A stretch of DNA of 64,000 nucleotides, taken from assembly GCA_021613535.1 (NCBI GenBank), contig CP075493.1:3968001-4032000 (forward strand). The letters run 5' to 3'. Below are positions 11,723 through 63,616 of this stretch, piece after piece; position 1 is the first letter of the stretch, and the number at the start of each line of letters is the position of its first letter. The position numbers and the translations under genes are program-made. The DNA is from Adineta vaga (lineage: Eukaryota > Animalia > Rotifera). Under the pieces are notes generated by a model that saw only the letters and a program-made list of their open reading frames with translations, searched no databases and was not told the origin of the DNA.

Positions 11723-13548
<1,826 letters not shown>

Positions 13549-26088: not shown

Positions 26089-26576
26089 ACAAAGAATGCT
26101 AGAGAATCACAAATATTATTTAATGAAAGAATCAAAGAGTACTCACTGAAGTTCAATCAATAATTCTTTGTGTGAATGTTGAAACACTAGAATGGTAGAT
26201 ATCAATAATCTAGAAGGAATATAGGGAGTTAACTATTATGAAATCATAAAAAGGTTTATAGTTCGATACATAAATTTATAATCAAATTATTGATAGATAT
26301 AATAAGTAACAATTAAAATGGAAAAAAAATTTAGAAAATGTGCACGGATAACGATTATACATTATTAAACAACAGAAAAATGATTTAATAGGAAAAAATA
26401 TTGTGATAAATTTTACAATATATAAAAAATCACTATTGATATTCTTCTCATCAACGGCAAAACTTAAAATTATAGGGCATTACGAGTTGCAAGTGTTAAT
26501 TCAAATACGTAACTTCCACAGAATCTATGGAACTCGAATAATAATTATACGTTCATATCCATCAAATTCTTGTGTA

Positions 26577-27011
26577 CAAGGTGGCGCATAAATCAAGTTA
26601 CCATCTTTTATTGTGAGTAACTTTTGATTGGAACAAGATATAGACCTGCAGTTTTTACCATTCGAACAAGTCATTCGGACCATCGATCAATAGGACATTT
26701 ACAAAAGCACAAGACACTTTTTTATAGGACTTTTTCAAGTGTGATTTTTTCCGTCAACTTTCATTTTAATTATTTTAGATATACTCTGGTGATATAATTT
26801 GAGGTCAGACTATTATAAACAATTATGAAAGTTGACGGAAAATATCACACTTGAAAAAGTCCTATAAAAAAGTGTCTTGTGCTTTTGTAAATGTCCTATT
26901 GATCGATGGTTCGAATGACTCGTTCGAATGCTAAAACTGCAGGTCTATATCTTGTTTCAATCAAAAGTTACTCACAATAAAAGATGGTAACTTGATTTAT
27001 GCGTTACCCGT
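26577..27011. mobile_element. MITE/foldback element with ~180-bp terminal inverted repeats (Tc1/mariner-like end)
   Basis: 26585-26764 is a near-perfect reverse complement of 26825-27003, with a 60-bp spacer. Left end is TA|CAAGGTGGCGC; right end is degenerate. No coding capacity. Confidence 0.8.
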
Positions 27012-27488
27012 CATACGTAGAAATGTGAGAAATTTTCTAATAATTCTTGCTCAATAGCCCTGTTGAAATTATCAGACGATTATGACGACAAGAAAAGAGT
27101 ACGATATATGAATTTTAAGGAATCAATAAAGCATCGAAACTTTTGCTTTGGTTTCTTCGTTTTTCTAAATGATTAGAAAATACTTCACAATGCTTTCCAT
27201 TAAAATCACAATTCAAACATCTCATCTCATACCATTAGAGTTACTAGTAATAGTATCTCCTGTTCTAATTCGAACTTATACAATTACTAACTTTATGAGT
27301 ACTATGAAAAAAATCCATGAATCAATGTCTTATTCCACGCGTTCACTAAAAACTATTACGATACAATATTTAAAAAAAAATTATTTGAGAGATGTTGAGG
27401 ATAGTTATTTGTAAATAACTAAATCGAAGATTAGGCACATAGACAAAACGGGAGATGAGTAGATCAAACTAAAAGAATTTAAATCGAA

Positions 27489-27553
27489 AATTCATGTTAT
27501 GAAGATGATCATTACAAATACATATTGTAATGATCATCTTCATAACATGAATT
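27489..27553. repeat. Perfect 29-bp inverted repeat with 7-nt loop
   Basis: AATTCATGTTATGAAGATGATCATTACAA-atacata-TTGTAATGATCATCTTCATAACATGAATT. Confidence 0.95.
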
Positions 27554-27725
27554 AAGGTCATATGGACAATGGTTAGAGAATATCCATTAAGATCAAAGTA
27601 AATGATAGCCTAGTGTGTTCTAATCAGATTTTCTGAATAGAAAAAAGGAATCAATTGATCGTCTTTGTCATACGGCACACTAGAAGAAAAATATCTAGAC
27701 TATCCATTTTCATTAGTAATATGCG

Positions 27726-28463
27726 CTACAGATGTTTTACCAGAGAACAAAACTTAAGCGCTCGGTCATAGTGTCTTTGGGCTTCAAATTCATTATTACC
27801 GTCTTCTCTTTGTTGATCACCTAATTCTTCCGAAAAAAGTGTCAAATCAATAAATAACTTTACCAGAAGACGCGTATCATCATCAAATATGCCATCCACT
27901 CTTGCATATGATCTTACAAACCGTTGTATAGTCAATATTTCTGTGGATAAACAACGAATCAGAATTGATTGAACACTATCATAATTATGACTACGAGAGA
28001 TAAGTTCCCTACAATTAACAGGCGACTGTAATATAAGAGATGCTATGGTTATCGATGGGTTTAAATCTAGCCATTGCCATAAATAATCTTCGATTGAAAA
28101 GAAAATTAATGTAATATCTATATCTTTCAAATAATGAATCAGTTTAGTCCGTAGAGTTGATTGACATTGACTGAAATAAATTACAATCGGTGCATTTGAA
28201 GAAACTAAAATTCGAAAAAGAACAAATTAATAACCATCATGTACTAAATCGTAGTCGAGCAATAGTTTTTTTCATCTCTGAATCTATTTCCTACCATTGC
28301 CGTAAACAACTTCAAATGGTTCATAACGCTGTTTTACTGGGCAAATAAATCTATCATCGTCATCATTATTATTGATAGTTGTAGCATTGTTCAATAATAC
28401 GGATTCAGATAAAATCCTCGTTGGGTACTCAACAACAGATAATTTATCTACCAAGAGTGACAT
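27726..28463 (-). CDS. Pseudo-receiver-like domain protein with C-terminal TPR-like helix pair, 2 coding exons
   Basis: MSLLVDK...YGN|VSSNAPIVIYF...LKDIDITLIFF joins ORFs 28284-28493 and 27726-28130 in frame. The alpha/beta pattern (VQSILIRC...VDGIFDD..LLVKL) resembles 41688-42116. Confidence 0.6.
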
Positions 28464-28647
28464 GGATAAAGAAGTGGGTTTTTCTTCGAACAAAAAGAAA
28501 TATCTAAAACCAGAACTATGTACGTCATAAATATGTTAACTTTGAAAGTCGTTATGATAAAGAGATGCTTTTTCTATACTATATGAAAAAAAAACAAATA
28601 GTATAAAACAAAAATATAAGAAAAAATCTTACTCATGCGATAGCAAG

Positions 28648-28661
28648 TTGGAAATTTCCAA
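28648..28661. promoter_or_regulatory. kappaB/NFAT-like perfect palindrome TTGGAAATTTCCAA
   Basis: 14-bp palindrome ~190 bp upstream of the ATG at 28463. Confidence 0.3.
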
Positions 28662-29441
28662 GTTCTTATGCAACAGTTGATAAATGTATTTTCTATGAGA
28701 TCTTAGTATAAATCATACCGCCTTGGTATGTTACGGTGCTAAATTTCACAAACAATCGTATCTATTATAGCCTATAATACTAATTAAACTCTCTAACAAT
28801 ATCGTTCTTTTCACTTACCTACTTTTTCGTTTCTGTTCCATAAACGTTATTTAGTTAATTATGCGAAAATATTTAAACTTATGCAACAACTCAATAATAC
28901 CAGTTCTAAACTTCTCAATTTCGCCGTAATAAAACCATAATCAACCGTCTACAAATCTTAAAAATGAAAAATAAAAAGTGAGAGAACAAAAACATAACGT
29001 TCGTAACGACTACATCGCAATTGAGAAAAAACCCAGTCAATTTTCCCAGTTACGTCATTAATATGCTTAAAGATACTTGAATTATAGTGAAAACATGGCA
29101 ACATGTGGCGATGTTTTTTAATCAAGTTTTAAAAAAATGTGAAATAAAGCAGCCTTTTCTTTTCACATATTACTTACAGAACAGAAGGTTAGACAAGATT
29201 GTAAAAGATAAGCCATGTGTCATTAGACGCAGACAATGTCCACAAAGATGAATGCAAAAGAATTGAAATTATAACGTTTAGTATATTTTTTATAAAAAAA
29301 AGTTGAAGATTTGGTGAAAAATCCGTTGCATTAAGTCATTTTAATGAATTAGAACAGGATTAATGCTACACACATCTGAGTTATCGAACGATATCGATGA
29401 ATTTATTATTTATAAAAAAATATGTTCCAAATATAAAATGA

Positions 29442-30815
29442 CTATATTTTCAAACTCTGATCTAATATTTCTTGATCATCTCGTTTCGTATTGACCTTTA
29501 ATTGTTCATCAATGTGTGTAAAGTGTTCTAATGTTCGATGTCGAATGGCATCTTGTATATGGATCGGTAATGCAATATCATCCATCATCGTATATGGTAA
29601 AGGTATCTTCTGTTTACCATCAAAGTTAATGGTAGCATTCAGAAACATCGTGTTATTACGAACATAATTATTTTCTGATCGGTGAATGAATGCTAGTGGA
29701 CAAAATTTCAGTATCCCATAGGCAATATTCATTCCTACACTTGGTTTTTGAATGTCTGTCAATATTGTATCGGGATAGAGAGTATCAACAATATGTTGTT
29801 TTCTACCAGTTTGATCATAGAGACAAAATGTTATTGAAAAATTAAATGGCCATTTCAATAGCACGTCATAATCTCCTTCGAAGAAAACAAGAAATACAGA
29901 TGTATGTGTGCCATAAGCATCACCAACACCATTCATATCCATTGCGTATTCGCATATTGTATCCAACTGGTGACGAATAGAACAATGGAGAATATATTGA
30001 TATTTGTCGTTCCGATCGTGCATCTTCTGAAACGGCAAAGTTACAAGATATTTCTTTAAAGAAATCGATACGTACCATATTTTTCAGCAACATCAGTAAT
30101 TTTCCAAACGAAGGAACCATTTGTGGAAGTACAATGAATATCTTGTATTTTTTGTTCAAGTGTAAGAAAATTTTGTTTTAATGCATCTTGCATCATTAGC
30201 ACCCGTTTAATATCAATATTCGTTTGCGATACTGAACATTTTTCTCTTAAATATTGTAAAGCATCCGTACAATTAATTACTTTATCCTCGAGATGTTGAA
30301 TATCGTTCTTGACGTTTTGTATTTCTTGCATAAGATTGTTAACAGTTTTGGGTTTCGAAAATGAAAGATGTAATTCCATACGCATTGTAAGGAAGGTTTC
30401 AACATCATTCTACAACTCACATAATTCAGATTTTATCCAGTTAAAGAACATTATAAATACCAATTCATTTGAATCGTACGATTCGTCAACATAATTGTCC
30501 CAAAGACCAAACAAATGACCCTTCCAGAGAGGATAGTATATAAGACTGAATAAAAAAAAATGAACTTACTAAGATCATGGACATCCTCTTTTGGCATTCT
30601 ATACATACATGAAAATTCCTCGGAATGAATGATATATAGTTACGATTAAGTTTACATGTTCAATTCTCTTACATTTCATTCTCGACGTCTACCAATAAGT
30701 CGAACAAATTTCGCTCAGTCAAAACAGGAAAATTATCGACATTTATGGTATTACTACTTTCGAATGTTGAGTCAAATGAAAAATATTCACTTGTAGAATA
30801 GGCTTTCTGCTTCAT
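29442..30815 (-). pseudogene. Second TRAF-like gene (coiled coil + MATH, no RING seen), frameshifted in MATH: pseudogene or assembly error
   Basis: NGSFVWKITDV..|EDARSERQISIYSPLFYSSPVGYNMRIR, then a +1 shift at ~29942 to MDMNGVGDAYGTHTSVF..LKWPF..FCLYDQ. 5' exons are uncertain. Confidence 0.65.
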
Positions 30816-31835: not shown

Positions 31836-32483
31836 GATGAAAAGATGAATAATCTTTCTCATACGTTATCTGTTTATATATATATATACACGAAATCAAA
31901 TATACATAGAATAGTCCATAGTAAGAACTGACGAAAAACATGAATGAATAGAATACTTTCATTCACAATAGACGACCGTGTCAAACAAGATGAATGCTCT
32001 TCGGTCACATCAATTATCTTTTCGATGAGAGAGAATTCTTGTTATTCTTCTTTCACACAAATATCTGATTTATTTTGTTGTTTTTTTTTTCATCTTAAAA
32101 TCGATCATTGTTGTTAAATAGTTTTCAAAAACATCAAACAATCTATTCGATAGATTTATTTTTTCTTTATTATCATCGTCTCTGAAGAAATCTTTCCTAT
32201 ATACCAGAAGATTCTATGCTAACAAAAAGCAATAATGTCGAACAGATATTATGTTTCAGTTAAAGTCTTCTATCCTAATTCTATGTAGCAGAATGTATGT
32301 GTAATTATATATGAAAAAGAAAAAACGCTTCGATTATTTATCCATTTCTTTCTCGAATCTATTCAGACAAGTAGATAATGATGATAAACATCAGATGATG
32401 TAATCAAGCATGAAAGAACTTTCTCGAAGATTTTCATTTGATTGGTAACAATCATTTGGTGTCCCATTTGAAACATTGATAAC

Positions 32484-33086
32484 ATGGCAACATTTCATAA
32501 TTTTCAAAGAATTTTTAATTCATCCTTTGAATTCTATGGTCTTTCCGAATGGTTATTAGAAATCATGCCGGATAATGTTAATCTTAATCATTCAAATACG
32601 AAACATTCTTCTAATGGTTGGATCTTTCGACGACACAATGCTCGTTCAAACTTTATTTGTGTCAATTGTACTGAATCAAAATCTTACCCTTATAAATCTA
32701 AAAAGAAAAAAATCAATAGTTGGTCATCTGCATTTACAACGATTCTTTTTCGAGCACGATTAGATCAATCACATAATGGTCAACTGATCGGTCGAATTCA
32801 AATGAAAATCTTCGAACAAGGTTGTCATACATGTAATATGTACAGTACAGGAATTCTCGATGATAAAGAAATCAAAAAAACATTCTACCGATTATATCTT
32901 TGGATATTGAAAACATTCTACAACGAAGAATTTCTTGACAACGATGATGATGATGATTATAATTATGAAGACAATCAATATAATCAACATCGAACAAAAA
33001 TTTCACATGATTCTAGTCGTTGTGATGGCTGCCGATTAGGATGGTGTAAAGCTTTGTATACAAATCGATATAGTTCGAAAAAATGA
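32484..33086 (+). CDS. zf-3CxxC (receptor-transporting protein, RTP-like) zinc-binding protein
   Basis: FICVNC...WSS...QGCHTC...HDSSRCDGCRLGWC. No TM anchor. Confidence 0.85.
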   Translation: MATFHNFQRIFNSSFEFYGLSEWLLEIMPDNVNLNHSNTKHSSNGWIFRRHNARSNFICVNCTESKSYPYKSKKKKINSWSSAFTTILFRARLDQSHNGQLIGRIQMKIFEQGCHTCNMYSTGILDDKEIKKTFYRLYLWILKTFYNEEFLDNDDDDDYNYEDNQYNQHRTKISHDSSRCDGCRLGWCKALYTNRYSSKK

Positions 33087-48283: not shown

Positions 48284-50138
48284 GAACATTTATTCTACGC
48301 ACGAAAACACAACATCGATAACACTTTCATGCGTGTTTTGATATGATCAAAGGAAATAAAAACATTTTTATGTATTCGATTTTGATACAAAAAATATTGA
48401 TCATTTTCCCAACTAAAAATATAGATTATTTTATATGAAAATATCATCAAATCTATGAGTTGAAAAAAACATAGTTTGGCAAATTATAGGTATTCAGTAT
48501 GAATTACAGAGATGAATTCTTATTTTAATCAACTACTATGTTTCAAAGTATCATTAAATTGATCAAGTTTTTTTGAATGATCGAGCATGAGTTCTACATG
48601 GAACGTTAGAGTTATGATTATTTGTCACTCATTTCCTTCTATAATTCAAACATAAAGAAGCGTGTAGGAATTCTTTTCCTGTCGGCTTTGATTTCAGAGA
48701 AACTTGATTAAACAAGTTCTTTTCAGTTGACATTTTTTATATATTTTTCTTAAAAAAGGAATGAGGAAGGAACTTTTATCAAAATATAAGAATCCGTAGA
48801 TGATTACTATATACATGTTTCTTCGTCTTTGTAACTTAGAACGAGACGGATGCTACTCTGCATAGATTAAGTAAAGCAATTCGTATGTAATTTTCAATAC
48901 TTTTTCATGTCACCAGTCAATATTTTGTCATCTAGAACGTTCATATGCTCTTATTATAGTACTTGAGAAGACAAAATCAGCATATTCATATTAGAATGGC
49001 AGAATAATTCCAAAAAAAAAGAATAATAGTACAGATCAGTGACAAAGTTTACGGAAGTATCAGTTTCGACAGAATTTCTTTATGTTCAAAAGAAAGTGCG
49101 GAAAGACAAATTCTATGAGTTTTTCTTTCAAAGAAATTTATGCATTATCAATCTTAGAAATGAATGCCTTTTGAACTATTCGTTAGAAAAGATAAAGATA
49201 GTATATTTTTGATCTTTTTCTTTCCCATTATCATTAGTTTTGTGGTTATAAGAAAATCTTCGAGATCGTTATTGTTTTATTTTATGGTGATACTCTTCAC
49301 GTTATTAATACTTGAAATCCTATTAATAAATAATTATTTTCTAACCATTGATATAAATCTACTTCTTGCATTATCTTTCAAACATTTTTAAAAATACAAA
49401 ATGTACAAATCTTTTTTTCTATATATAGTATGTGCTCATCTTTCTTAACTAAAGTATTCTTTTCAGAGGAAGTTCTTCAGTATTCTTCTATTAAGATAGA
49501 TATTTATTTCTTATAGCTAGTTAAAAATGATGAAGCTCACAAATAAAACAGCTGGTAATCGTAGAGTTTTCTTGAGTAATATTTGATATATATTTTTATA
49601 TGAGTACTTTCTATAATTTCATAGTCAAAATCAGCGTATCTGGAAAGTCATGTCTGAAAACTTTTATTATATATATATTCTTGCTACTTCATCTAACTTG
49701 ATTAATGTTTTTTAAACTAAGGGTAAGTATTCTGAGTTCTTATTTATCAGAATAACCTTTCATGCTATTCTAGCAAAATTCTGCATCCTCTACAGGATCC
49801 TAGTAGTCAAGAGATAGATTAAGATATTTCTATTCTTAATATTTTCATCAGATTAGATAGAATGTATTGAATTTTACAAGAATACGTATGCTGAAGAATT
49901 AAATTCTTTTTCTAAGAAAAACAAATTTATAGAAAACTACTAGAACAATCGAGATAATGACTGAGATTAAAAAAATGGTTTTAATATGTTCTTTTGAATG
50001 TACAAAGCACGCAAAAGATTTGCGGATTAGTATGCAAGATCATTTGGATAAAGAAAAACTCGACATATGATAGAAATTTTGTTGAATAACTTTCCGAACA
50101 TTTTGTGTAATTATTATTTGTCACCTATAGGAACAATC

Positions 50139-51125
50139 ATGGTACAAACGGAAAATGCTGAGTTAGTTGAAAGGTTAACAATATCAACTTTAAATTTACA
50201 TTTGTATGTATCGATGTTGATTTTTCTTTTTGGTCTTATTGGAAATCTTCTCAATATATTTATTTTAACACAACGATCACTTCGCTCTATTCCATGTATA
50301 TACTTATTTTTAATTTCATCGATAGCAAATCTCATATCAATTCTATTTGGTTTAACACCAAGAATTCTTCTAACATGGCAATTAGATTTAACTGCAACGA
50401 ATGATTTACTTTGTAAAATACGTGCATTTATTTTATTTACATCTCGAACAATAGCATTGTGGTTAACAACTTTAGCAACAATTGATCGTTGGTTAATTTC
50501 ATCAAATAATCCTTTCTTTCGACGATTAAGTTCATTGAAAAATGCACGAAATGGTTCTTTAATTATAACGATTATTTCAAGTTTATTGTACATACAAATG
50601 CTCTATTGTTATAAAGCAAATCTAACATATACACCATTGAAATGTTATGGTCATACATCATCTTGTTGTTTATTAACTGATTTAACATATGCATGTTTTA
50701 CTGTTTTCTTTCCTTTGATTTTCATGATTATATTTGGTTCTATGACAATATCAAATGTACGCAATGCGAGAGGTTTTACTGCGCCATTACGAGTTGCATC
50801 CGTCCAATATTTAAATAAAGAACAAGCAATCATTTTCAAACAACAAAAACAACGATGGAAAAAACTTGATCGTCATTTACGACGAATACTTTTTCTTCAA
50901 ATTATTTTATTTATTTTCTTAAATGTACCACAAGCAATTCATAAGATTTATTTTACAAGTACATCAGTTCATTCTAAATCCACGGTTGAATATAAATTTG
51001 ATCAATTCTTATATAGATTTGAACTTCTTCTACCATATATAGAAAGTTCTCTACCATTCTATATCTATATACTCACCGGTGGAAAAATATTTCGTACAGC
51101 TTTAAGAAAATTGTTTGCTTGTTGA
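50139..51125 (+). CDS. Rhodopsin-family 7TM GPCR, intronless
   Basis: GLIGNLLN, CKIRAF, ATIDRW, PFYIYILTGGKIFR. Same subfamily as 2645-3680. Confidence 0.88.
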   Translation: MVQTENAELVERLTISTLNLHLYVSMLIFLFGLIGNLLNIFILTQRSLRSIPCIYLFLISSIANLISILFGLTPRILLTWQLDLTATNDLLCKIRAFILFTSRTIALWLTTLATIDRWLISSNNPFFRRLSSLKNARNGSLIITIISSLLYIQMLYCYKANLTYTPLKCYGHTSSCCLLTDLTYACFTVFFPLIFMIIFGSMTISNVRNARGFTAPLRVASVQYLNKEQAIIFKQQKQRWKKLDRHLRRILFLQIILFIFLNVPQAIHKIYFTSTSVHSKSTVEYKFDQFLYRFELLLPYIESSLPFYIYILTGGKIFRTALRKLFAC

Positions 51126-51928
51126 AAATGTTAAGTTTAATAATAAATACAAAAAAGCCATACAGAATCTGTTGTAAATTTGAATTTTTTTTTGGTATAA
51201 CGACATCTGTAAGAGAAGATTCGACGTATGTTTTTTTTTTAACAACAAAAATGTTGGAAGATTTTTTTCCAAGTAAATGTAATTGACATATGTCATAGTT
51301 AAAGACGTTTTGATGTATTATTTGAAGTATTTACTTGTTTTTGATAAAGAAAAAACTTGAAAATTTTCTGAGAAAAAATGCTTCTGTTGAGTTTTATCTT
51401 TCGAAGAAAGATGGTTACCATATTAACGAATCAATGTTGAAATAGTGTTTCTTTCCAGTTTGACTCATATCTCGCTATCACATACGTGTAAGTGTCAATA
51501 CAAAAGAAGCTTTCTTATGGATTAGATTTCCACATTTGAATCACTAAATCGAAAGAATATCGTCTCATGTAAGTCAATATGTGACATAATCAGACTATAT
51601 ACAAAGATTCTAAAATTGCGCAATCCTTTTATATAATAAGTTTATTCTGTACTAAACAATTCCGTTTCGTTAATACAGAAAAGTATTCACAGTATACTTT
51701 TTGCTTTATAAATTCACACATAATTGTCATACAAATAGAAAATTATTCTGAAATGAAAACAAAACAAAACAAAAAACACACATTTGACATCATGCAATAA
51801 AAAGTTTTCAAATAGTTCATATGAATTCAGTGAAGATCTGAATAGGTCTGCTAAAATGTTTTCAACGTCTTTCTCAAATTAAGCTACGAATATTCATATG
51901 AGATTACTTTGGAAGTTCACACTGATTT

Positions 51929-52471
51929 CTACTGGTAGTCCATCTCCATGTTATTATTTTCATCAACACACAATTGTTCCATTAATTTCGGTGAGAATTG
52001 GAAGGTATATCGAGTATTTGTTTTGAGCATGGTACCTTCTTTGTAGTAGCATCGTACTGCACGTGCAAATTTATCATAGGTCATCTCTTTATTTGACTGT
52101 CGACTTTTGATTTGTTGCCATAGATGTGCAATTTTTTCAGGTTCATGAACTTCAAAAATACCTTTGGATATATCCTTATACGATGCATATGAAATATATT
52201 CACGCTTTTGAAGTAATAGAAGAAGAAATTCATAGAGCCATGGTGGTCTTTGACGCTTTGAAACTTTATCTGTAACCAACCAATCTTTTGGATTAACTGG
52301 AATTTCACTTGATGGAGTTGGAGTTTGAATTGGGATAGCTTGTAAGAGATCAGAAAGGTCGAATTCTTCCGCTAAAATGTCATGGAGCAAATCCAATTCG
52401 AATTTATCCAGTTGAGGAATATCATCAAGACAGTCCAAATCTAAGCTATTATCGTTGGCAGTAGCCATCAT
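51929..52471 (-). CDS. ETS-domain transcription factor (ELF/ESE-like, minimal)
   Basis: LYEFLLLLLQ..GIFEV..AHLW..K..MTYDKFARAVRCYY..YTFQF, with an acidic N-terminus. Confidence 0.9.
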   Translation of the reverse strand: MMATANDNSLDLDCLDDIPQLDKFELDLLHDILAEEFDLSDLLQAIPIQTPTPSSEIPVNPKDWLVTDKVSKRQRPPWLYEFLLLLLQKREYISYASYKDISKGIFEVHEPEKIAHLWQQIKSRQSNKEMTYDKFARAVRCYYKEGTMLKTNTRYTFQFSPKLMEQLCVDENNNMEMDYQ

Positions 52472-52655: not shown

Positions 52656-53922
52656 AGTGATCTTTAAAGGGAAAATGACTAATGCGTTTGTCGGTATAGA
52701 ATAGAAAGAGAAGAAAAAAGTGTCATTATAGCCTTCCACAAGTAGGTTTTTTGTGTATTCAGTAGTTTCAACTTTAGTGGTAAACTAGGTTGGAGAATGC
52801 CGACTTTGTTTATTGATCGCGAAGAAAAAAAAATTACTCATGGATTATATCAAATGCGTGTTTCGATGTATTATTTAGATTGTAGTAAAATCATGTCTAT
52901 AGTTAATGATGAAATCCCGAATCATTCCGAGAAAGACGGATAGCGTCATGAGAAGAGTAGATAAGCGGATTAAACTAGTAAGTATGTTAATTATCCTATA
53001 TGCTTTTCATTGATTTTGTATTGTAGACAGTCGATTTAAAATGATGTTATGTGTGAAATTATTTCGTCTCAAACCATCTTATGCTAACAATTTTGGTTTT
53101 CTCTTACAGTATTATCTATACAGCATGTCATAAAACAAAACTCTTTGAAAGTCGAAAATTATTCATCTTTTAAACTCATGTCAATCATATGACTGATTGT
53201 ATGGAATTACTATTGTTGTTGGATCTAATGGTTTTATATTAAAGATTAGTCGTTGTTCTTGTTCAGCCTTATTTATTAATACATCAACTGTTTTCATTAT
53301 ACGCAAATGAAAACTAAAATATAACATAGAAAAGAAAAAAGAAAAAGCTGCATATGCAACAATGTTATTAAATAGAAATCATATAGTTAAATTTGAGATT
53401 CTTTTCCCTATAATTAAAAAGGATCATTTTTGAAGTGGCTTCTGTATGCATGAATAATTCATTCAACCGGATAAAATTCTTTTCAAGTATTAACAATATT
53501 TGTTATACACTTTGTTGTCTATCCTCATGACTTATTGACTTCAATTTTATCAGGTAATTTCACAATTTAAGTATAAAACAATCGTGCTACAAGGGAAAAT
53601 TACCATTTCCAACTATATTGGAGTAAACCACATAACTTCACGAATTATACACCTTAGAAAATAATGACATTACGTCATTGAATGTATTTTATTTGATAGA
53701 CATATCAAAAGAAAAAAAACGAAAACAAAATCTAACCAACGAAAAACCATAATATTTACTGTCGTAGGTAATTATCTAGACGAATCAAAATTTTTTATAC
53801 TTAAATAAAAAGAGGAAGTGATACTGCATTCGATTTTTTTTCTCGTGTTTAATATAGTTTATATATCAGTTGAATATACACCTGTACAGTTTGGTTTTTC
53901 TCTTCTAGCTTAACTGATCTCA

Positions 53923-55418
53923 ATGGCTACCTTCTATGCACAAACATCGGACAATGACAAAAAAGATCCGATGCATCGTTTCGATGAAATATCTAGAGAA
54001 CCAGGTGGTATGTTAGCACCTGTCGCAGGTTATAACAGTAAATCTTTAGTATCGCTTGAAAAAGCAACCGAATTCTTAGCAGAAAGTGTTCCTAATCGAA
54101 TTGGATATATTAATTCTGCTAAAGGACGAGCAATAGAAGCTTCAACTACTCTTCCATGTGATGAAGTAGCTGCAATTACATTATATACAATGGAATGGGA
54201 ACCGTATGAAAAATCAGTTTATTATAAGCTTAATACTGCATTACGTACGGAAAATCGTCAACTATTAAAACCATGGTTTTGTATTTGAAATTACTACTTA
54301 CTGCATTAGCTCGCCTCCCCGAACAACGAAACATTACTGTTTATCGTGCAGTTCGATGTAAACATGAAAATGAATTTGAAAAATATCAAATAGGCACTGA
54401 ATTTATCTGGTGGGGTTTTTCTTCATGTTCGACCGATCGAAACATTTGCGAACGAGAGACATTTATTGGTACGACTGGTTTTCGAGTATTATTTATTATA
54501 ACTTGTATTCATGGAGTCGATATTAGAGAACATTCTTATTTTCGTACTGAAAATGAAGTTTTACTTTTACCAGCAACGAAAGTGAGAGTTACAGGAGTTC
54601 AACCATTCAATGATCAAGGTCTTCAAATTATTTTTCTTCAACAATTACCGACACCTGAAGGTCTTTTAGAACCTGTTTCGCTTACAAATATATCAAATAA
54701 TGAGACAACATTAGAGAGAAAATCATCAACATTTAATAATTCTGAATCAAATTATAATCCAAAATGGAACGAAGAATTTGCTCGTTATAAAATAGGTACA
54801 GATGTTAATCTCTCACGAAGACGTTATCGAAATGATGACTTCAATACAGTTATTACGGAGTTCATTATTAACAAGAAAAGTTTAGGAATAGTCTTACGAG
54901 AAAGTAAATTAACAGCCGATGGTGCACGAAGTCTTTCGAAAATATTAATGCACGATGATAATACTTTAGAAAGATTGTATTTAACTGAGAACAAAATTGG
55001 TGATACTGGTGTGGAATATATTGCTGATGCACTTTCACATAATAAAAATAATACATTGAAATGTCTTTGTTTAGCATCGAATGATATTACAGACAAGGGT
55101 GCGATATATCTTGCGAAGATGCTCGAAACAAATACAACGTTGACCGATTTGTTGTTGGGAAGAAATGCAATTCGTGATGAAGGTTTTCAAAGATTACTTG
55201 ATGTTCTAATATCAAAGAATAAAACTTTACAAGTACTTTCAATAGAACGGAATAAATGTCGCAGTGATGAAAATGCTATAAGTATTTTTAATCTCCTAGA
55301 AAACAACAAATCATTGAGAAAACTTAATATAATTGACTGTAAATTATCAAGAACAAATACAAGAGAAATTAGAAGACTTGCTGCTGAGAAACCTAATTTT
55401 GAATTGGTTTTAAATTAA
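53923..55418 (+). CDS. ADP-ribosyltransferase (R-S-E) fused to RNI-like LRRs; 1-nt frameshift at 54277-54280
   Basis: AAITLYTMEW..LNTALR..LKPWF|LYLKLLLTAL..VYRAV..WWGFSSCS..ENEVLLLP, followed by LxxLxLxxNxIxDxG repeats. Adding one T fuses the two ORFs. Confidence 0.85.
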
Positions 55419-55733
55419 TTTTTTTAATACGTTTTCGCTGAATTAATATTACAGATAATGTTTGTAAATAACAAATCTATTCAAAAGTTTTCTGGAAAAG
55501 AAAATAAATACAACTTTCAATGGTTTTTTTTGAGTTATTTATTATCGAATAAATTTCTTTTTAGAACAGTTTTCTATGAATTAACTATATATCATTAAAT
55601 AGTATTGAGTAAAACTGGATTTTAAGAGAAAAATCTTAATGTCAGTGATGAATCCTTCTTTTTTTCGTCTTTATATTGAAAAACCAACAGAAGTGTATTT
55701 TCTCTTCGTATCGACGAAAAACACATAACGACT

Positions 55734-56247
55734 ATGACGTCGTACAAAACACCACGCGCCACGTGTGACAATAAAGGTGTAGGTATTGATATGTTTATTT
55801 GAGATGAATTGTTTTAGTATCGGCACAATTGCATGAACTTGCTGAACGATTGCAGATAGCTCGTATAGATGATGATTATGTTGAAACTGATCTAAGTACA
55901 TGGAAAACAATGTTACAAGAACTCTAAAATGATCTGATGACATTTACTCCATCATTATTTCGTCATGGTGTTCATATAGACGAAAATGGTCTCGTAGCAA
56001 GACACTGTGGTTCAAAGAATGGCGCAGCTTTAGTTCGTTGTATGAGTGTATACATTTGGTGTCCATAAAATTCGATTTATAGAACTTTGTTTAAGATTGT
56101 CTGGAAGTTAACGTCACTCGAATTTAAAATGCATAACGGCCATGATGGTATCAATCGTCCAGATGACGACCTACAAAATGTCCATTTCTCTGGGATACTC
56201 ACTTCTACATGTATACGAATGGAGATTGTATTCGTTTGTTATCTTGA
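55734..56247 (+). pseudogene. Internally deleted pseudogene copy of the B-box/SPRY gene at 58003-59092
   Basis: Starts MTSYKTPRATCDNKGVGI. 55785-55956 is ~97% identical to 58341-58512, with a CAA>TAA stop. Diverged remnants follow (CGSKNG.ALVRC, HKIRF, KCPF.W..HFY, GDCIRLL*). Confidence 0.88.
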
Positions 56248-56636
56248 TGTACGAAGATGATATGAATATTATATGTGGAAATATTCTACAATATCTTTAA
56301 ATAATTTTTATATGATTTGATCGAAGTTTCATGCTTGAACTACTTGCATTGTCGTATCATTTGCACATATACACCCACTTTCAAATGTTTTTCATATAAT
56401 TAATCATATTTAACCAATATATATATCGATTCAGTATGATTTTCAATTTTTGCGTGCAATCAAACGAATATAGAATGGAATTCATGAATTGCTCTAATCA
56501 CGTACTAATGAATCTATATCATATTGATATGTGGGTAAAAAATATAAATTAGTCATAGAAAGGTCTATACGTTTCTTCATCAATAGAGAAAGATTCATCA
56601 ATAAAATGATTCATTACTTTACATATTCTTCCTTTT

Positions 56637-56644
56637 TGACGTCA
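56637..56644. promoter_or_regulatory. CRE (TGACGTCA)
   Basis: Perfect CRE ~70 bp upstream of the ATG at 56710. TTACGTCA sits at an equivalent place (62457) before the paralogue. Confidence 0.35.
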
Positions 56645-56709
56645 CCGACAGGTTTTTATTCGACGTCGATTATGTATATTTCTTTCATTGAGGAAAAAAA
56701 GAACTAAAA

Positions 56710-57825
56710 ATGTCATCCAGAGCTCCTTGTATTTCATGTGAAAATATAGATAGCAATGGAATATTCAAATGTGAAGGATGTTCACAAACATTTTGTTTGA
56801 AACATACGAATGAACATCGATTTTGTCTTGATTACCAATTAGAAAGAATGATCGATGAACATGAGACAATTTTTCATCTATTCAATAACACAAAACAACA
56901 ATCATCATTATTATTCGATCAGATTAATCAATGGGAAATCGATTCTATTACAAAAATCAAACAGATCTCTAATGATACACGAGAAAAAATTCAACAATTA
57001 GCTCAAATACAAAAACGTAAGATTCTCATTATTTATCTACTAAATGTCAATGAAATCTATATATATATATCTATATATTCTTATTTAGAACATACCAAAG
57101 ATAAGTTTAATAAAATCAGTAAAGAATTAGAAAATGCTCGTACAACTCATGAATATCTTGAAAAAGATCTTTATAAATGGAAAATTCAATTAGAACAATT
57201 ACATTATGATATAACCAGTCTTTCACCAACAATTATTCTTCATGAAAAATTAAATTCAACAATTATTAAAAATATATCTGTATCAAAAGTAAATGAACAA
57301 CTTCTTCTAAAAGATTCTCTTGTTAGTGATTCCAATCATATTCAATTTGATGATCAACATCATATTGCAATGCATTGTGGTCCTAAACGAACACCATGTT
57401 ATGTTACTGGTACTCAAGAATATTTATCTGGTCAATATCAAATACGATTATTTATTAGTAAAAAAACTAGTGATTTTAGTCTTTCATTTAATATCATATC
57501 GAAATCTATGGAGAAATTAATAAGTTCATCTCATTCATCGGAATTCTTAACATACGGTTGGCAAAGTGATGATTGTGTTAATCCATCGCATTGTTATTCA
57601 TCAATGTATAAATATTATCCTGATTTTAAAGGTCAAACAAAATTTCATTTGGAATTATTTCTTGATTGTGATAATCATAAAATAAGATATTTCAATGAAA
57701 AAACCAAACGAGAAAGAGAAATTGATGTCGATTTGGACAAATGTCCTTTACCATGGAAACTTCATTTCTATTTATATGATATTGGTGATTCTATTCGACT
57801 TCTTTCGTCTATACAAATATCATAA
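56710..57825 (+). CDS. RING-less TRIM-like protein: B-box + coiled coil + SPRY/B30.2-like domain, 2 exons
   Basis: CISC..GIFKCEGCSQTFCLKHTNEHR; coiled coil; C-terminal YGW..LELFLDCD..KCPLPWKLHFYL. In-frame 72-nt intron at 57017-57088. Confidence 0.8.
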   Translation: MSSRAPCISCENIDSNGIFKCEGCSQTFCLKHTNEHRFCLDYQLERMIDEHETIFHLFNNTKQQSSLLFDQINQWEIDSITKIKQISNDTREKIQQLAQIQKRKILIIYLLNVNEIYIYISIYSYLEHTKDKFNKISKELENARTTHEYLEKDLYKWKIQLEQLHYDITSLSPTIILHEKLNSTIIKNISVSKVNEQLLLKDSLVSDSNHIQFDDQHHIAMHCGPKRTPCYVTGTQEYLSGQYQIRLFISKKTSDFSLSFNIISKSMEKLISSSHSSEFLTYGWQSDDCVNPSHCYSSMYKYYPDFKGQTKFHLELFLDCDNHKIRYFNEKTKREREIDVDLDKCPLPWKLHFYLYDIGDSIRLLSSIQIS

Positions 57826-57886
57826 AATTTGATTTGTATAAAACTTAGTTTTTAACGAAATAAATATTACATCATTTACTAGACAC

Positions 57887-57906
57887 ACTCTCTCTCTCTC
57901 TCTCTC
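57887..57906. repeat. (CT)n microsatellite
   Basis: About 10 CT units. Confidence 0.8.
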
Positions 57907-58002
57907 TTCTTTTTTTTCTCCTTCAACTATTTCCTTTGCTAATGGAAAGAAAAACATTTATATTTTTTTCTTTTCACTCACAAACTAGACGAACCTGTGT
58001 TA

Positions 58003-59092
58003 ATGTCGTATAAAGCACCTTGTGCCACATGCGGCAATAAAGGTGTAGGTATTTTTCGATGCGAAGGTTGTTTGCAAGTATTCTGTCGAAAGCATCTCAA
58101 TGAACATCGAGATGTTCTCAGTCATCAACTAGATGAAATCGTTCTTGAACATGATACATTACAACAAACCATTGTTGATAATACCAATGCACAAGATAAA
58201 CAACATCCTGTTCTCAAACAAATTGATCTATGGGAAAAGGATTCTATTCAGAAGATTCAACGATTTGCTGAAGAAGTAAGAAAACAAGTAAATCAATTAA
58301 CAGATACACAAAAGAGTAAACAATAATCGAATAACGATAGATTGATATGTTTATTTGAGATGAATTGTTTTAGTATCGGCACAATTGCATGAACTTGCTG
58401 AACGATTGCAGATAGCTCGTATAGATGATGATTATGTTGAAACTGATCTGAGTACATGGAAAACAATGTTACAAGAACTCCAAAATGATCTGACAACATT
58501 TACTCCACCATTGTCTCTTCATGAAAGTCATTCTCAAGTACTTATTCCAAAGATATTTCTTTCAATCCCAAAAGATACTATGAAATCAACTGAAAAATTT
58601 GGAAAATCATATGGTAGTGTTCGAATTGAAGGCAATGGTTATATTGCAATCCATTGCGGTTCAAAGAATGGTACAGCTTTAGTTCGTTGTCAAGGTGAAT
58701 ATTCATCAGGTATACATAAAATTCGATTTCTATTCAAAAAAAGTGATATCGATTATATTACTTCATTTGGTATTGTTTCAAAACTAATGTCATTAGATTT
58801 AAAAACATCCGATTCATCTTATAAATGTTATGGATGGAATAGTAACGATTCAACTTGTGCGCCTGGTGCTGATCAATTGCAATGTAAAAATTTACAAGAT
58901 ATGATTGGTCAAACCGTTTTTGAAATTGAACTTCAATTGGATTGTAATAATCGAACAATTACGTATATTAATCAAAGAACTCAAAATCGAAGAGAATTAT
59001 ACATTGATATAACAAAATGTCCATTTCCTTGGCAAGTTCATTTCTATCTATATGAAATTGGCGATTGTGTTCGTTTATTACCTTTAATATGA
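58003..59092 (+). CDS. RING-less TRIM-like B-box + coiled coil + SPRY-like protein, 2 exons
   Basis: CATC..GIFRCEGCLQVFCRKHLNEHR; phase-1 intron at ~58316-58373; C-terminal KCPFPWQVHFYL. Confidence 0.82.
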
Positions 59093-59184
59093 TATAGTAG
59101 AAACATCGTTTCTTTTTTGTTATTTTAAAGTTGTTTTATCGAATAAAAACATGTGTTCAATGGATTATTTGAAAGATAGATTTC

Positions 59185-59256
59185 AGCAGCGTGGCGCAGT
59201 GGAAGCGTGCTGGGCTCATAACTCAGAGGTCGGTAGATCGAAACTACTCGCTGCTA
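59185..59256 (+). tRNA. Initiator tRNA-Met (CAT), variant anticodon stem
   Basis: 72-nt cloverleaf AGCAGCG...CGCTGCTA with A1:U72, T-loop ATCGAAA and anticodon CAT. A T-run (Pol III terminator) follows within ~10 nt. Confidence 0.95.
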
Positions 59257-59647
59257 CTATTTATTTTTTTTAAATTCAATTTTTATTTCAGAAGAAGAAA
59301 AAACGAATCTTTCTCCTTATCAAGGTTAATTACATATTGATAGTTATCTTTTTACGTAACATTTCTATCGAAAAATACAAATATCCTTGATATATTTATC
59401 ATAATAAACCTTCTGATTTGAATAACGATACGATACCTTTCAAACTACTTTCATCACTCTTATATAACCGTCGAAGAGGAGGAGAAGAAGCAGAAGAAGA
59501 AAACCATCTATTTTCTGTTTATGACTTTAATCAAACATAGGTAAATAGAATGATATTGAGTGAACAACTATAAGCAATTTATTTTGAAGGTAAAGGAATT
59601 TGAAAGAGAAGAAAAAACCTATCTAGAAACAAATCTTTAGATTTATT

Positions 59648-60409
59648 ATGCCTAAAATAACCGATTTATCATTTCAACAATCACAAACAATCGCTCGTCG
59701 ACAAATTTCGACGACTCCAATTCCGGAGAATTATGTTTCAAAAGTTTATTATAATTCTAAACTTGAAGATGCAATTGAATTCATCGAAGCTAAATCACGT
59801 GTTGATTTTTCCTATTGGAATTTAATCGATGATGATATATCGATTATCGTCACACGTATTATTAACAATAAACAATGTCCAGAACTTGATTTATGTGGAA
59901 ATAAATTTACATCAAATGGTATATCAATACTAGCATTTCGTCTACCAAACAATACGACCTTAAAAACTCTTGATTTATCATATAATTTCTTACATGATTC
60001 TGGTATTCATTTGTTGAGTGAAGTACTCCTACCAGATCATTGTTTACATCTTCGAAAACTTGTTTTAAATAAAAATGGTATTACTAATGAAGGTATCGAA
60101 TATCTCGCTGAAATGTTGAAAACGAATCAATTATTAACAGAATTATGGTTATCGAATAATGAAATTGGTAATGAAGGTGTCAAACAATTGGCGGATGTAT
60201 TGATAAATTTTAATCGAACTTTAAAATTATTGGTACTTTCATTTAATGTTTTTATTACTGATGATAGTGTACACTATCTTATGGAGGTATTAGAACGTAA
60301 TCAAATCTTGACTAAACTTGGAATTAATGATTGTAATTTATCTGAAATAGGAAAAATTCAACTTCAAAAAATAGTTTATACAAAAACAAAATTTAAAATG
60401 AAAATTTAA
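59648..60409 (+). CDS. RNI-like LRR-only protein, paralogue of the LRR half of the ART-LRR gene
   Basis: LKTLDLSYN, LRKLVLNKNGITNEG, LTELWLSNNEIGNEG. The cap YNSKL..VDFS..DDDISIIVTRIINNK aligns with YNPKW..VNLS..NDDFNTVITEFIINK. Confidence 0.85.
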   Translation: MPKITDLSFQQSQTIARRQISTTPIPENYVSKVYYNSKLEDAIEFIEAKSRVDFSYWNLIDDDISIIVTRIINNKQCPELDLCGNKFTSNGISILAFRLPNNTTLKTLDLSYNFLHDSGIHLLSEVLLPDHCLHLRKLVLNKNGITNEGIEYLAEMLKTNQLLTELWLSNNEIGNEGVKQLADVLINFNRTLKLLVLSFNVFITDDSVHYLMEVLERNQILTKLGINDCNLSEIGKIQLQKIVYTKTKFKMKI

Positions 60410-60675: not shown

Positions 60676-62121
60676 TCAGGCAAAATGTTTGTTTAAATAT
60701 TCTTGAATATGACGTGCACTAACAAGACCAGATTCCAATGCTCCATCGATAAATCCTCGCCAACCGTTTGCTATATCACCACTAGCAAAAAAGACGGGTG
60801 GTTCGGGTGTTTGAAGTGATAATAAATTTGAAGACATTTGTCCAGGTTTATACCAAGACCATGTACTCATAATATATGGATCATTTCGCCAATCATGACC
60901 AAGAACAAATTTAACTTTGATATCTGGACGAAATTTCTTCAATTCTTTTTCAACAACAGATATATTTTTAATATCAAGTATTTCATCTGGTCCAAAACCA
61001 ACAATTATGGAACCATCTTGATCATCGGTATAGGCCATTGTTATTGAATTGGGGTAAGGTGCCGTACCAAACCAATGTCCAATAGGTTCTTCTAATTTAA
61101 CCCAAAATTTCATTCCACCACGACATTGACCTCTCATTGCTATTTCTTGTCTTTTCATATTAAGAGTTGGTAAAAATTCAATATTTTTTAATACATTTAA
61201 TGGAACAGTAACCAGTACTGTTCGACCAAGAATTAATTCTCCTGATTGAGTTCGAATTATAACAGAATTTGGTTTTGTATGATCAATTGAAAGAACAGAT
61301 GTTGATAGTAATAATTTAACATTGTGACAATCATTTAATATTGCTTCAGCCAATGTACTTGTTCCTTCTTTGATTTTATATCGACCAAGTTTATCAAACA
61401 TACGAATCATATCATAATCTCCAAGTGCCCACCAACGAAGATGATCAATAAATCCACCTTGATCAATATTACCTTGCATATTCATTGAAAGTAATGCTAA
61501 TAACATGCCTTGAATTTCATCAGTCATAGGAAGAGAATTTTGAATTTGATCATATCGATCTTTCATTGATAATTGATCATATTTTTCGACATTTTCTTTT
61601 GCAACAAGTGGTGTATGAGGTAATGGTATAATTGTTCGTGCTTGAACATCATCAACATCACTATATTTTTCCATAAATTTACCTAATGTTACCCAATTAT
61701 CAGCCATGGTCACATTTTTTAATTTGGTTCCGTTCTCAAGTAGGATACTCATGTATTCAGCTGCAACACCTTTTGATTCAATGATTGAAAGACCATAACG
61801 TGTTATTTCACTCCATACATGTGGATGACTCCAATGAATCCATGTACCACCAATTTCAAATTTACAATCGTCATATTTGGCTGTAAATGTTCGACCACCA
61901 ATACGATCTTTTGCTTCAATAAGTAATACTTTTCGTTGACGTAAACTAAGTTCACGTGCTGCAACAAGACCAGCAAAACCAGCACCAACAATAATCACAT
62001 CATATTCTTCAGTGTTAATGAATTTTTGTGATTGAATAGACGTTAACGTTGGCAAACCACTTTTTACTAAACCATTCGAATGACAAAGAAAACCATCGTT
62101 AGTTTCCTTCGGATGTGTCAT
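60676..62121 (-). CDS. Flavin-dependent monoamine oxidase, MAO-N-like (fungal/bacterial type), intronless
   Basis: DVIIVGAGFAG, EAKDRIGGRT, GGTWIHWSHPHVWSEITRYG, HDWRNDPY..TWSW, GDIANGWRGFIDGALESG. Confidence 0.92.
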   Translation of the reverse strand: MTHPKETNDGFLCHSNGLVKSGLPTLTSIQSQKFINTEEYDVIIVGAGFAGLVAARELSLRQRKVLLIEAKDRIGGRTFTAKYDDCKFEIGGTWIHWSHPHVWSEITRYGLSIIESKGVAAEYMSILLENGTKLKNVTMADNWVTLGKFMEKYSDVDDVQARTIIPLPHTPLVAKENVEKYDQLSMKDRYDQIQNSLPMTDEIQGMLLALLSMNMQGNIDQGGFIDHLRWWALGDYDMIRMFDKLGRYKIKEGTSTLAEAILNDCHNVKLLLSTSVLSIDHTKPNSVIIRTQSGELILGRTVLVTVPLNVLKNIEFLPTLNMKRQEIAMRGQCRGGMKFWVKLEEPIGHWFGTAPYPNSITMAYTDDQDGSIIVGFGPDEILDIKNISVVEKELKKFRPDIKVKFVLGHDWRNDPYIMSTWSWYKPGQMSSNLLSLQTPEPPVFFASGDIANGWRGFIDGALESGLVSARHIQEYLNKHFA

Positions 62122-62543: not shown

Positions 62544-63616
62544 ATGATGACAACATTAACTACACCATGTACAATATGTGCTAATAAAAGTATTGGAATC
62601 TTTAAATGTGAAGGATGTACAAAAGTATTCTGTCGCAAACATGTCAATGAACATCGTGATGATCTTCGTCAACAATTAGATGAAATCATTCATGAACATG
62701 ATCAACTTCATCAATTAATTAATCAAACAGAAAATGAATATCATTCATTATTCGATCAAATCACTCAATGGAAAGAAAAAGCTATTGAAAAAATTCATCA
62801 AGTTACTGAAAAAATTCGTGCTGATATTATTGAACAGATCCAAGCACAAAAAGGTAATAAGCATTTATTCGATTAGAATTTATGTAACCTTTTTGAACTT
62901 TTCTTTTAGAAAGCAATTTACAAACATTAAAATATCTTTCTCGACGTCTTCGAAAAGCTTGTGAAGATGATGATTATATAGAAAATGATCTTCATACTTG
63001 GACAACAACATTACAAGATTTAAAAAGAGATTTACCAACAAATAATTCCTCATTGACTCTTAATGAAGATTCCAATGTAACTTTGATTTCAAACATCAAT
63101 CTCATTTCGACGAAACATCTTACATTTTCAAATGAATATTTTTTACGTTTCATAGGTGATATTGATATCGAAGATAATGGTCTTGTTGCTATTCATGATA
63201 TTCGTAAAAGTAGTGATGCATTTGTATATGGTAAACAATCATATCATCAAGGAAAACATACGATACGTTTTCTCATTACAAAAACAAATGCGAACTATAT
63301 AACAACATTTGGTATTGCATCCGTACAAGCTCAATTATGTGTTTATGGTTGGAATAGTGATGATCAAATAGTTGGCCGTCATCATTCTCATTCAGAATAT
63401 TTATATAATCAATATGACATGAAAGGAGAGACAATTCTAGAAATTGAATTATATATTGATTGTGAACAGAGAAAACTTTCGTATTTAAATCAACGAACAC
63501 AATGTGTAAAAGAAATTCATGTTGATTTAAATTTATGTCCATTTCCATGGCAATTGTACTTCTATTTGTATGATATTGGCGATCGTGTACGTTTGTTAAC
63601 GTCTAATCGAATATAG
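62544..63616 (+). CDS. RING-less TRIM-like B-box + coiled coil + SPRY-like protein, 2 exons
   Basis: CTIC..GIFKCEGCTKVFCRKHVNEHR; phase-1 intron at ~62854-62909, the same position as in its paralogues; LCPFPWQLYFYL. Confidence 0.82.

Follow-up and report, generated by a model that had tools for sequence, protein, structure and literature searches.

A putative arginine ADP-ribosyltransferase fused to leucine-rich repeats and its linked enzyme-less paralogue in the bdelloid rotifer Adineta vaga

Mono-ADP-ribosyltransferases (ARTs) with the R-S-E triad (ARTC type, Pfam family PF01129) are known from vertebrates (ecto-ART2) and from bacteria (Vis, HopU1, XopAI, C3 and the 6drh/6dre toxin). A 2010 review places arginine-specific enzymes in phages, bacteria and vertebrates, considers insects, worms and unicellular eukaryotes to be without them, and gives the ExE motif as the mark of arginine specificity (PMC3102197). 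Another group is formed by the ribonuclease inhibitor and other proteins with ribonuclease inhibitor-like (RI-like) leucine-rich repeats (LRRs), such as those of NLRP and NOD proteins, LRRC34, DRC5 and RanGAP. Plant paired receptors of the nucleotide-binding leucine-rich-repeat type (NLRs; RRS1/RPS4, RGA4/RGA5, Pik-1/Pik-2) are nucleotide-binding proteins encoded predominantly head-to-head with a shared promoter (PMC9528088). Here we describe a locus comparable with all of these, found in an AT-rich eukaryotic 64-kb stretch of the Adineta vaga genome (contig CP075493.1, positions 3,968,001 to 4,032,000; the whole analysed stretch is further called the window), in which an ART fused to RI-like LRRs (the ART-LRR gene) is followed on the same strand by a paralogue having the LRRs without the enzyme (the LRR-only gene).

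With the ARTC enzymes the ART-LRR protein has in common the R, S-x-S and E-x-E motifs and the fold, and it differs from them in showing no sign of a signal peptide or membrane anchor (as judged by a hydropathy proxy), in the lack of a delivery domain, in its C-terminal RI-like LRRs and in being the product of an endogenous animal gene. Both rotifer proteins share class and fold with the RI-like LRR proteins, from which they are set apart by only six repeats, a family-specific N-terminal cap and 16-26% identity. The likeness to the plant pairs lies in two linked, divergent LRR paralogues, one of them with an extra domain; the rotifer pair, however, has no NB-ARC or NACHT domain, is arranged head-to-tail, and its extra domain is an intact enzyme and not a decoy. 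The closest relatives in databases are bdelloid entries named 'NAD(P)(+)--arginine ADP-ribosyltransferase' (UniRef/NCBI), of which the window gene is a direct member; these names are automatic, and the entries examined make no mention of the conserved LRR-only neighbour. No published description of the ART-LRR family or of the linked pair was found in the literature searched, most subscription papers being outside its reach. What is new here is that the linkage of the two genes is old and present in three other lineages.

The explanation fitting best, for which we see roughly even chances, is an LRR-targeted cytosolic arginine ART standing beside an ancient enzyme-less paralogue with a ligand of its own. 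The LRRs of the ART-LRR protein would serve as a targeting arm, binding a conserved endogenous protein of the rotifer, which the ART, if the ExE rule holds, would ADP-ribosylate on arginine; the modification could be reversed by the ADP-ribosylarginine hydrolases of the animal. The LRR-only gene would go back to an ancient tandem duplication and would since have lost the enzyme domain; its product would bind a different partner, with the two proteins functionally independent, and the gene likely stays near because the whole block is conserved. This explanation is carried by the observed domain anatomy, the conservation of the motifs, the size of the family, the conserved linkage and the distinct concave surfaces of the two proteins.

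As for anatomy, Pfam assigned to the larger, second piece of the ART-LRR gene an ART (PF01129, E 1.1e-9, above the cut-off) together with LRR_6, and to the LRR-only open reading frame (ORF) LRR_6 alone. An earlier sequence-only reading of this DNA had proposed an R-S-E ART with the motifs VYRAV, FSSCS and ENE fused to LRRs, and all three motifs are where it had put them (Table 1). The protein thus has the R-S-E triad within an ART fold and the E-x-E (ENE) at the ARTT loop, and these residues are almost invariant in an alignment of 45 homologues: the R and the first S of S-x-S are present in 45 of 45 and each E in 44 of 45, the second S being S in 25, T in 19 and A in 1. On the ExE rule the enzyme is predicted to be of the arginine type. 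Its ART domain matches vertebrate ART2 weakly by sequence (E 0.006), and the ART half of the model of the intact Adineta ricciae orthologue (P0002) retrieved Vis, HopU1, the 6drh/6dre toxin, XopAI and C3 in Foldseek. Concerning location, the N-terminus is hydrophilic, with an in-frame stop (53911-53913) ahead of the start codon, and no 19-residue window above 1.72 on the Kyte-Doolittle scale was found in the 45 aligned homologues, hydropathy being used as a proxy for a signal peptide. By this proxy neither the signal peptide nor the glycosylphosphatidylinositol anchor of ecto-ARTCs was detected, the C-terminus being the LRR domain, so the earlier claim of no signal peptide holds within the same proxy and the protein is likely cytosolic.

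The cap and LRR parts of the two proteins can be aligned over 222 aa with 32% identity (E 2e-30), and each has six LxxLxLxxN-type units, consistent with the RI-like pattern of 28-29-residue LxxLxLxxN/C repeats in an alpha/beta horseshoe. The LRR-only ORF begins 4,229 bp past the ART-LRR stop, both genes running head-to-tail on one strand, and a six-frame search of the whole window with hidden Markov models gave no ART or LRR of this family beyond the one ART and two LRR domains, and no ART remnant ahead of the LRR-only gene; a downstream gene with the same cap and LRRs but no ART, as had been noticed about 4 kb away, is therefore confirmed. Equally, no NACHT family was found by Pfam at E<=0.1 in the ORFs of either gene, so the earlier statement on its absence stands and the central NACHT/NB-ARC of an NLR is missing.

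The model of P0002 (mean pLDDT 87, pTM 0.55, with a low-confidence linker) shows just an ART and an LRR domain, and with such a linker it would bear neither for nor against autoinhibition. Its LRR half matched the ribonuclease inhibitor, NOD2, NLRPs and axonemal proteins alike in Foldseek, and in VIA-align rows, which cover the LRR half only, NLRP3, a designed LRR and the ribonuclease inhibitor at Z 25-27. In searches with sequence profiles of both LRRs against solved structures, ribonuclease inhibitors were the best matches. The LRRs of the fusion are no nearer to NLRs than to the ribonuclease inhibitor, and from the earlier description of 'NLR-type RNI-like LRRs' the RI-like class can be kept, the NLR type being over-specific. 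Targeting to tropomodulin or actin, suggested by a precomputed PF27087 label, was dropped, since with both profiles the 60 best-matching solved structures include no tropomodulin. The model of the LRR-only orthologue P0122 has pTM 0.83, with residues 1-24 disordered. In many members of the LRR-only clade this disordered N-terminal tail (window 59648-59730) bears a short serine-rich motif ending in F-R/Q-L, degenerate in the window, possibly a docking or modification site. Also, ~50-bp GT...AG stretches are present at 59541-59640, just 5' of the LRR-only start, and a small 5' exon may lengthen the N-terminus slightly.

In the window the ART-LRR gene is read as two overlapping ORFs in different frames (53923-54288 and 54273-55418), the first of them 59% identical to P0002; the direct fusion claimed earlier is conserved among bdelloids and broken in the window as read. 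The stretch or part of it is contained in 20 of 24 listed sequencing runs, and contigs from four of these, belonging to four studies, were compared with the window. In each of the four the break is crossed by a single contig of 1.2-1.6 kb with a one-letter indel relative to the window at full depth, with the caveat that one of the runs may be the window's own source and that contigs lose rare variants. Since contigs of all four runs differ there, the simplest reading is that the break is most likely an assembly error. In a sample of 40 of the 103 difference rows listed, allelic differences in ART-LRR were synonymous in 10 of 13 cases (four of four in the LRR part), and those in the LRR-only gene were one synonymous and two non-synonymous. 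That this animal carries ART-LRR as a pseudogene, as its frame-shifted window sequence would imply, we regard as very improbable, given that the window's version of the break is missing from all four runs, that allelic differences are mostly synonymous and that intact orthologues occur across bdelloids; judging from these sequences the gene is likely intact.

The named best matches of both genes come from bdelloid rotifers (Adineta ricciae, Rotaria spp., A. steineri and Didymodactylos), the closest to ART-LRR being A. ricciae P0002 (57% over 97%). ART and LRR_6 occur together in 54 of the 119 non-self homologue rows listed, 45 of which made up the family profile after exclusion of 9 partial or outlying rows. 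Among the best 150 representatives of 50%-identity clusters retrieved by profile, 57 were ART+LRR proteins, the search being swamped by long LRR proteins (93 of 150). Ten of the ART+LRR representatives were looked up for organism: seven are named bdelloids, two have no organism, and one (P0302) is filed under the moss Sphagnum troendelagicum, being probably a rotifer contaminant of that assembly. With an ART, a cap and six LRRs, and grouping with bdelloid homologues, the window gene belongs to this bdelloid family. In the ESM Atlas a cluster of 51 ART+LRR proteins has Rotifera as its commonest phylum, and the same rotifer ART domain occurs alone or with LRR, NHL, FG-GAP, MORN, ADP-ribosylhydrolase or NACHT+TIR. 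With one ART domain joined to so many partners, the family can be seen as a modular set of bdelloid enzymes with swappable binding arms, of which the fusion is one branch and not a one-off. Clusters near residues 16-250 of P0002 include the rotifer ART joined to NACHT+TIR (68 members) and to ADP-ribosylglycohydrolase (170 members), and the ART-TIR-NACHT proteins have a better claim than this locus to be true NLR-like ART effectors.

Some further observations concern the family. An Actinomycetota ART+Macro cluster is structurally close to the rotifer ART (TM 0.84), which is a lead only, and short-pattern scans gave no relative in bacterial and archaeal genomes (65 pattern matches) or in viral contigs (15). 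Two LRR proteins, P0151 and P0154, start with a remnant of the last ART strands, which may come from truncated gene calls or from independent losses of the ART; on the trees the label switches ~8-10 times. In metagenome locus L062 three ART genes lie within 6 kb (8359-13956), and in L077 (10001-17224) a distance of 6.5 kb separates two ART copies of equal score. Gene Ontology (GO) tables count 431 arginine-ART genes in A. vaga and 366 in A. ricciae, and 58 and 48 genes of ADP-ribosylarginine hydrolases in two Adineta species (PMC11258130, supplement file 14).

To follow the linkage, we used 79 metagenome loci, of which 16 have a full ART-LRR gene and five of these extend at least 5 kb downstream. 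An LRR-only gene lies downstream in four of the five (L007, L008, L013 and L017), where L007 and L008 represent one gene, and L018 is the same region as L017; the fifth, without one, is L062, whose ART-LRR gene is a more distant paralogue. In L007 the order is that of the window: G-protein-coupled receptor (GPCR), ETS factor, ART-LRR, two B-box-SPRY genes, LRR-only, amine oxidase. The gap between ART-LRR and LRR-only is 322 bp in L013 and 305 bp in L017, and in all linked loci, as in the window, the pair is on the same strand, head-to-tail. In L002, L004 and L006 B-box-SPRY sequence follows ART-LRR and the sequence ends early; the remaining loci are too short. For the A. ricciae orthologues of both genes the longest contig given has one and the same length (23,495 bp), which suggests that the pair is linked there too. 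The ETS and GPCR genes are kept upstream in both loci of this clade having a 10-kb upstream flank (L007, L018), so the neighbours are as conserved as the pair itself, and such background synteny counts against a special coupling.

Regarding origin, a quick tree of 108 rows gave an LRR-only orthologue set of 28 rows (SH-aLRT 100) and a separate fusion clade of 32 rows (97), and in a tree of 67 chosen rows, also a quick search, the linked fusions all fall in one clade and the linked LRR-only genes all in another (99 and 99). A recent local duplication was rejected by the approximately unbiased (AU) test (p-AU 0.008) and a sister relationship of the two clades was not (p-AU 0.66, or 0.78 with two more rows), the groups being named after the tree was seen and the quick search being suboptimal. 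The non-sister arrangement of the first, 108-row tree was dropped after this test. The trees fit an old tandem duplication in which the ART would have been lost from one copy.

The sequence-only reading had gone further, seeing in the locus a receptor-effector with an LRR-only decoy or regulator, analogous to paired NLRs, and had suggested looking for positive selection on the LRR concave face and for induction by infection. In such a paired immune module the LRRs would keep the ART inactive as long as no pathogen molecule is bound; on binding, the enzyme would poison either the cell or the intruder, and the product of the linked LRR-only gene would act as co-receptor, decoy or tuner. To examine the surfaces, amino-acid entropy in deep orthologues was compared at positions 2, 4, 6, 7 and 9 of each LxxLxLxxN unit, which form the concave face in LRR geometry in general, the choice not being taken from the model. 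For the 24 rows of the fusion clade the concave face averages 1.75 bits of entropy and the other exposed positions 1.74 (p 0.96); the corresponding values for the 30 rows of the LRR-only clade are 1.37 and 1.62 bits (p 0.20). By this measure no hypervariable concave face was found in either clade, and the commonest concave residue is identical between clades at 4 of 30 positions. Neither part fits, because a mimic would share its surface and a diversifying sensor would vary it; the decoy and the diversifying surface are both unsupported. The analogy to paired NLRs fares no better: conserved linkage there is (L007/L008, L013 and L017/L018), but the neighbours are equally syntenic, which accounts for it, and in the window as in every linked locus the pair runs head-to-tail and has no nucleotide-binding domain, unlike most NLR pairs (PMC9528088). 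Speaking for the module are the retained linkage, with a spacing of 0.3 kb in L013 and L017/L018 and probable linkage in A. ricciae, the ART fold common to conflict toxins, the rotifer ART+TIR+NACHT clusters, and the defence proposed, among several roles, for the expanded LRR/TPR/NHL repeat families of Adineta in another study (PMC3846280). Taken with the expression data below, we find the module unlikely.

Several points weigh against the LRR-targeted enzyme with an independent paralogue as well. The pair is retained where the B-box-SPRY and amine-oxidase genes are absent (L013, L017); the quick tree searches missed better topologies; and the SPRY-like neighbours, together with the rotifer ART-TIR-NACHT proteins, lend the family an immune flavour. 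Moreover, the LRR of the fusion is the fastest-diverging of the block domains compared, as a sensor's might be and as the immune module would have it, and is less conserved than the LRR-only protein in four of four comparisons, the identities being 58 vs 77, 44 vs 50, 38 vs 53 and 35 vs 44% for the fusion LRR and the LRR-only protein, respectively.

A different coupling would be that of enzyme and inhibitor, the LRR-only protein blocking the ART as the ribonuclease inhibitor blocks RNases and so shielding the cell from its own enzyme. The structure matches of the LRR-only profile, the well conserved concave face of this protein and the adjacency of the genes in two lineages agree with it. The ribonuclease-inhibitor likeness is, however, generic for the LRR class and true of the fusion's own LRR, six repeats stand against a much longer inhibitor chain, and in L062, which holds a more distant ART-LRR paralogue (35%, outside the trees), no LRR-only gene was found within 7.3 kb downstream. 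Complex prediction for P0002 and P0122 gave a score of 0.00 in two runs made with neither alignments nor folded controls, which is evidence neither way. On balance such inhibition seems rather improbable.

Expression data are at the level of the family, for one pathogen, not mapped to the ART-LRR gene, and come from tables of supplement files 14, 1, 15 and 16 of PMC11258130. File 14, which judging by the order of the files and the names of the sheets gives GO enrichment among horizontally acquired candidates under fungal infection, has the arginine-ART term in three of four down-regulated sheets (6/431, false discovery rate (FDR) 4e-5; 19/431, FDR 1e-12, 24 h; 8/366, FDR 0.024) and in none of the four up-regulated ones; nor is it listed in the up-regulated sets of files 1 and 15. 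At family level, induction by infection, expected of the immune module, is thus opposite to what is seen. The main text of PMC11258130 gave no match for ADP, ribosyl, leucine, LRR, NLR or NAD.

A role apart from infection, in desiccation or else in cilia or the cytoskeleton, both of which commonly contain RI-like LRR proteins, has in its favour the axonemal proteins LRRC34, DRC5 and RSP15 among the LRR matches and the enrichment of ADP-ribosylation in genes over-expressed on entering and leaving desiccation, as reported in PMC10809525. Such matches are, however, class-wide, no ADP-ribosyl term appears in the abiotic-stress file (file 16) of PMC11258130, and the desiccation term, like the ADP-ribosylation enriched among genes down in spaceflight (PMC12220480), may reflect poly(ADP-ribose) polymerases (PARPs). 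We give this role small odds.

Table 1. Features of the ART-LRR/LRR-only locus (window positions)
Feature	Position	Strand	Remarks or basis
ART-LRR gene, piece 1: N-terminal helical half of ART domain	53923..54288	+	121 aa as read in window; positions 1-103 of family ART profile
ART-LRR gene, piece 2: catalytic core, linker, cap, six RI-like LRRs	54273..55418	+	381 aa as read in window
Frame break in short homopolymer	54274..54282	+	one-letter indel vs read-derived contigs; likely assembly error
Catalytic motifs R (VYRAV), S-x-S (FSSCS), E-x-E (TENEV)	54339..54560	+	sequence; VYRAV 54339-54353, FSSCS 54417-54431, TENEV 54546-54560
Cap helix and six LRR units of ART-LRR fusion	54741..55415	+	alignment to LRR-only paralogue; fold of orthologue
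Decayed partial copy of SPRY-like gene 57997-59092	55739..56245	+	96% identity over 183 bp to ~58341-58523; other pieces 75-84%
Zinc-finger (B-box-like), coiled-coil, SPRY-like gene 1, between ART-LRR and LRR-only genes	56710..57825	+	weak zf-AN1; L007 orthologue 51%
Zinc-finger (B-box-like), coiled-coil, SPRY-like gene 2	57997..59092	+	two coding pieces, likely two exons
tRNA-Met	59185..59257	+	ARAGORN
LRR-only paralogue: ~30-aa disordered tail, cap, six LRRs	59648..60409	+	253 aa
Rhodopsin-family GPCR (+) and ETS factor (-), upstream syntenic neighbours	50067..52471	.	Pfam; also upstream of ART-LRR in L007, L018
Flavin amine oxidase	60676..62121	-	Pfam; syntenic in L007/L008 only

Among the neighbours listed in Table 1, the second SPRY-like gene has as its top ESM Atlas match a SPRY cluster (score 0.96, 183 shared features), and a third B-box-like/SPRY-like gene lies past the amine oxidase, at 62544-63616. 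The tRNA-Met sits 390 bp upstream of the LRR-only gene, with a read depth in its bin of 6-8x that of the flanks, as for a multi-copy tRNA. Farther away, ORF pieces at 23994-30083 (-) are, judging by eye, presumably two TRAF-type genes (RING, MATH), and an ORF at 32472-33086 (+) is one which we take, likewise by eye, for an RTP/zf-3CxxC zinc-finger protein.

The interest of this particular locus is limited, because the family has many other members and the idea of an immune pair is so far unsupported. A doubtful possibility is that of an ancient NACHT-free receptor-effector pair, in which an LRR-gated arginine ART would be accompanied by a linked, more conserved LRR-only partner, holding the ART in check or sharing its trigger, the two kept side by side since before the split of Adineta and Rotaria. 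If true, it would be the first unit to be mapped in a so far unstudied network for arginine ADP-ribosylation within the cell, made up of ~400 writers and ~50 erasers. Bdelloids are predicted to have hundreds of arginine ARTs with swappable binding domains, apparently intracellular, of which we found no study, and the described locus, being compact, single-ORF and conserved, and having a natural enzyme-less paralogue, makes a practical entry point to their substrates.

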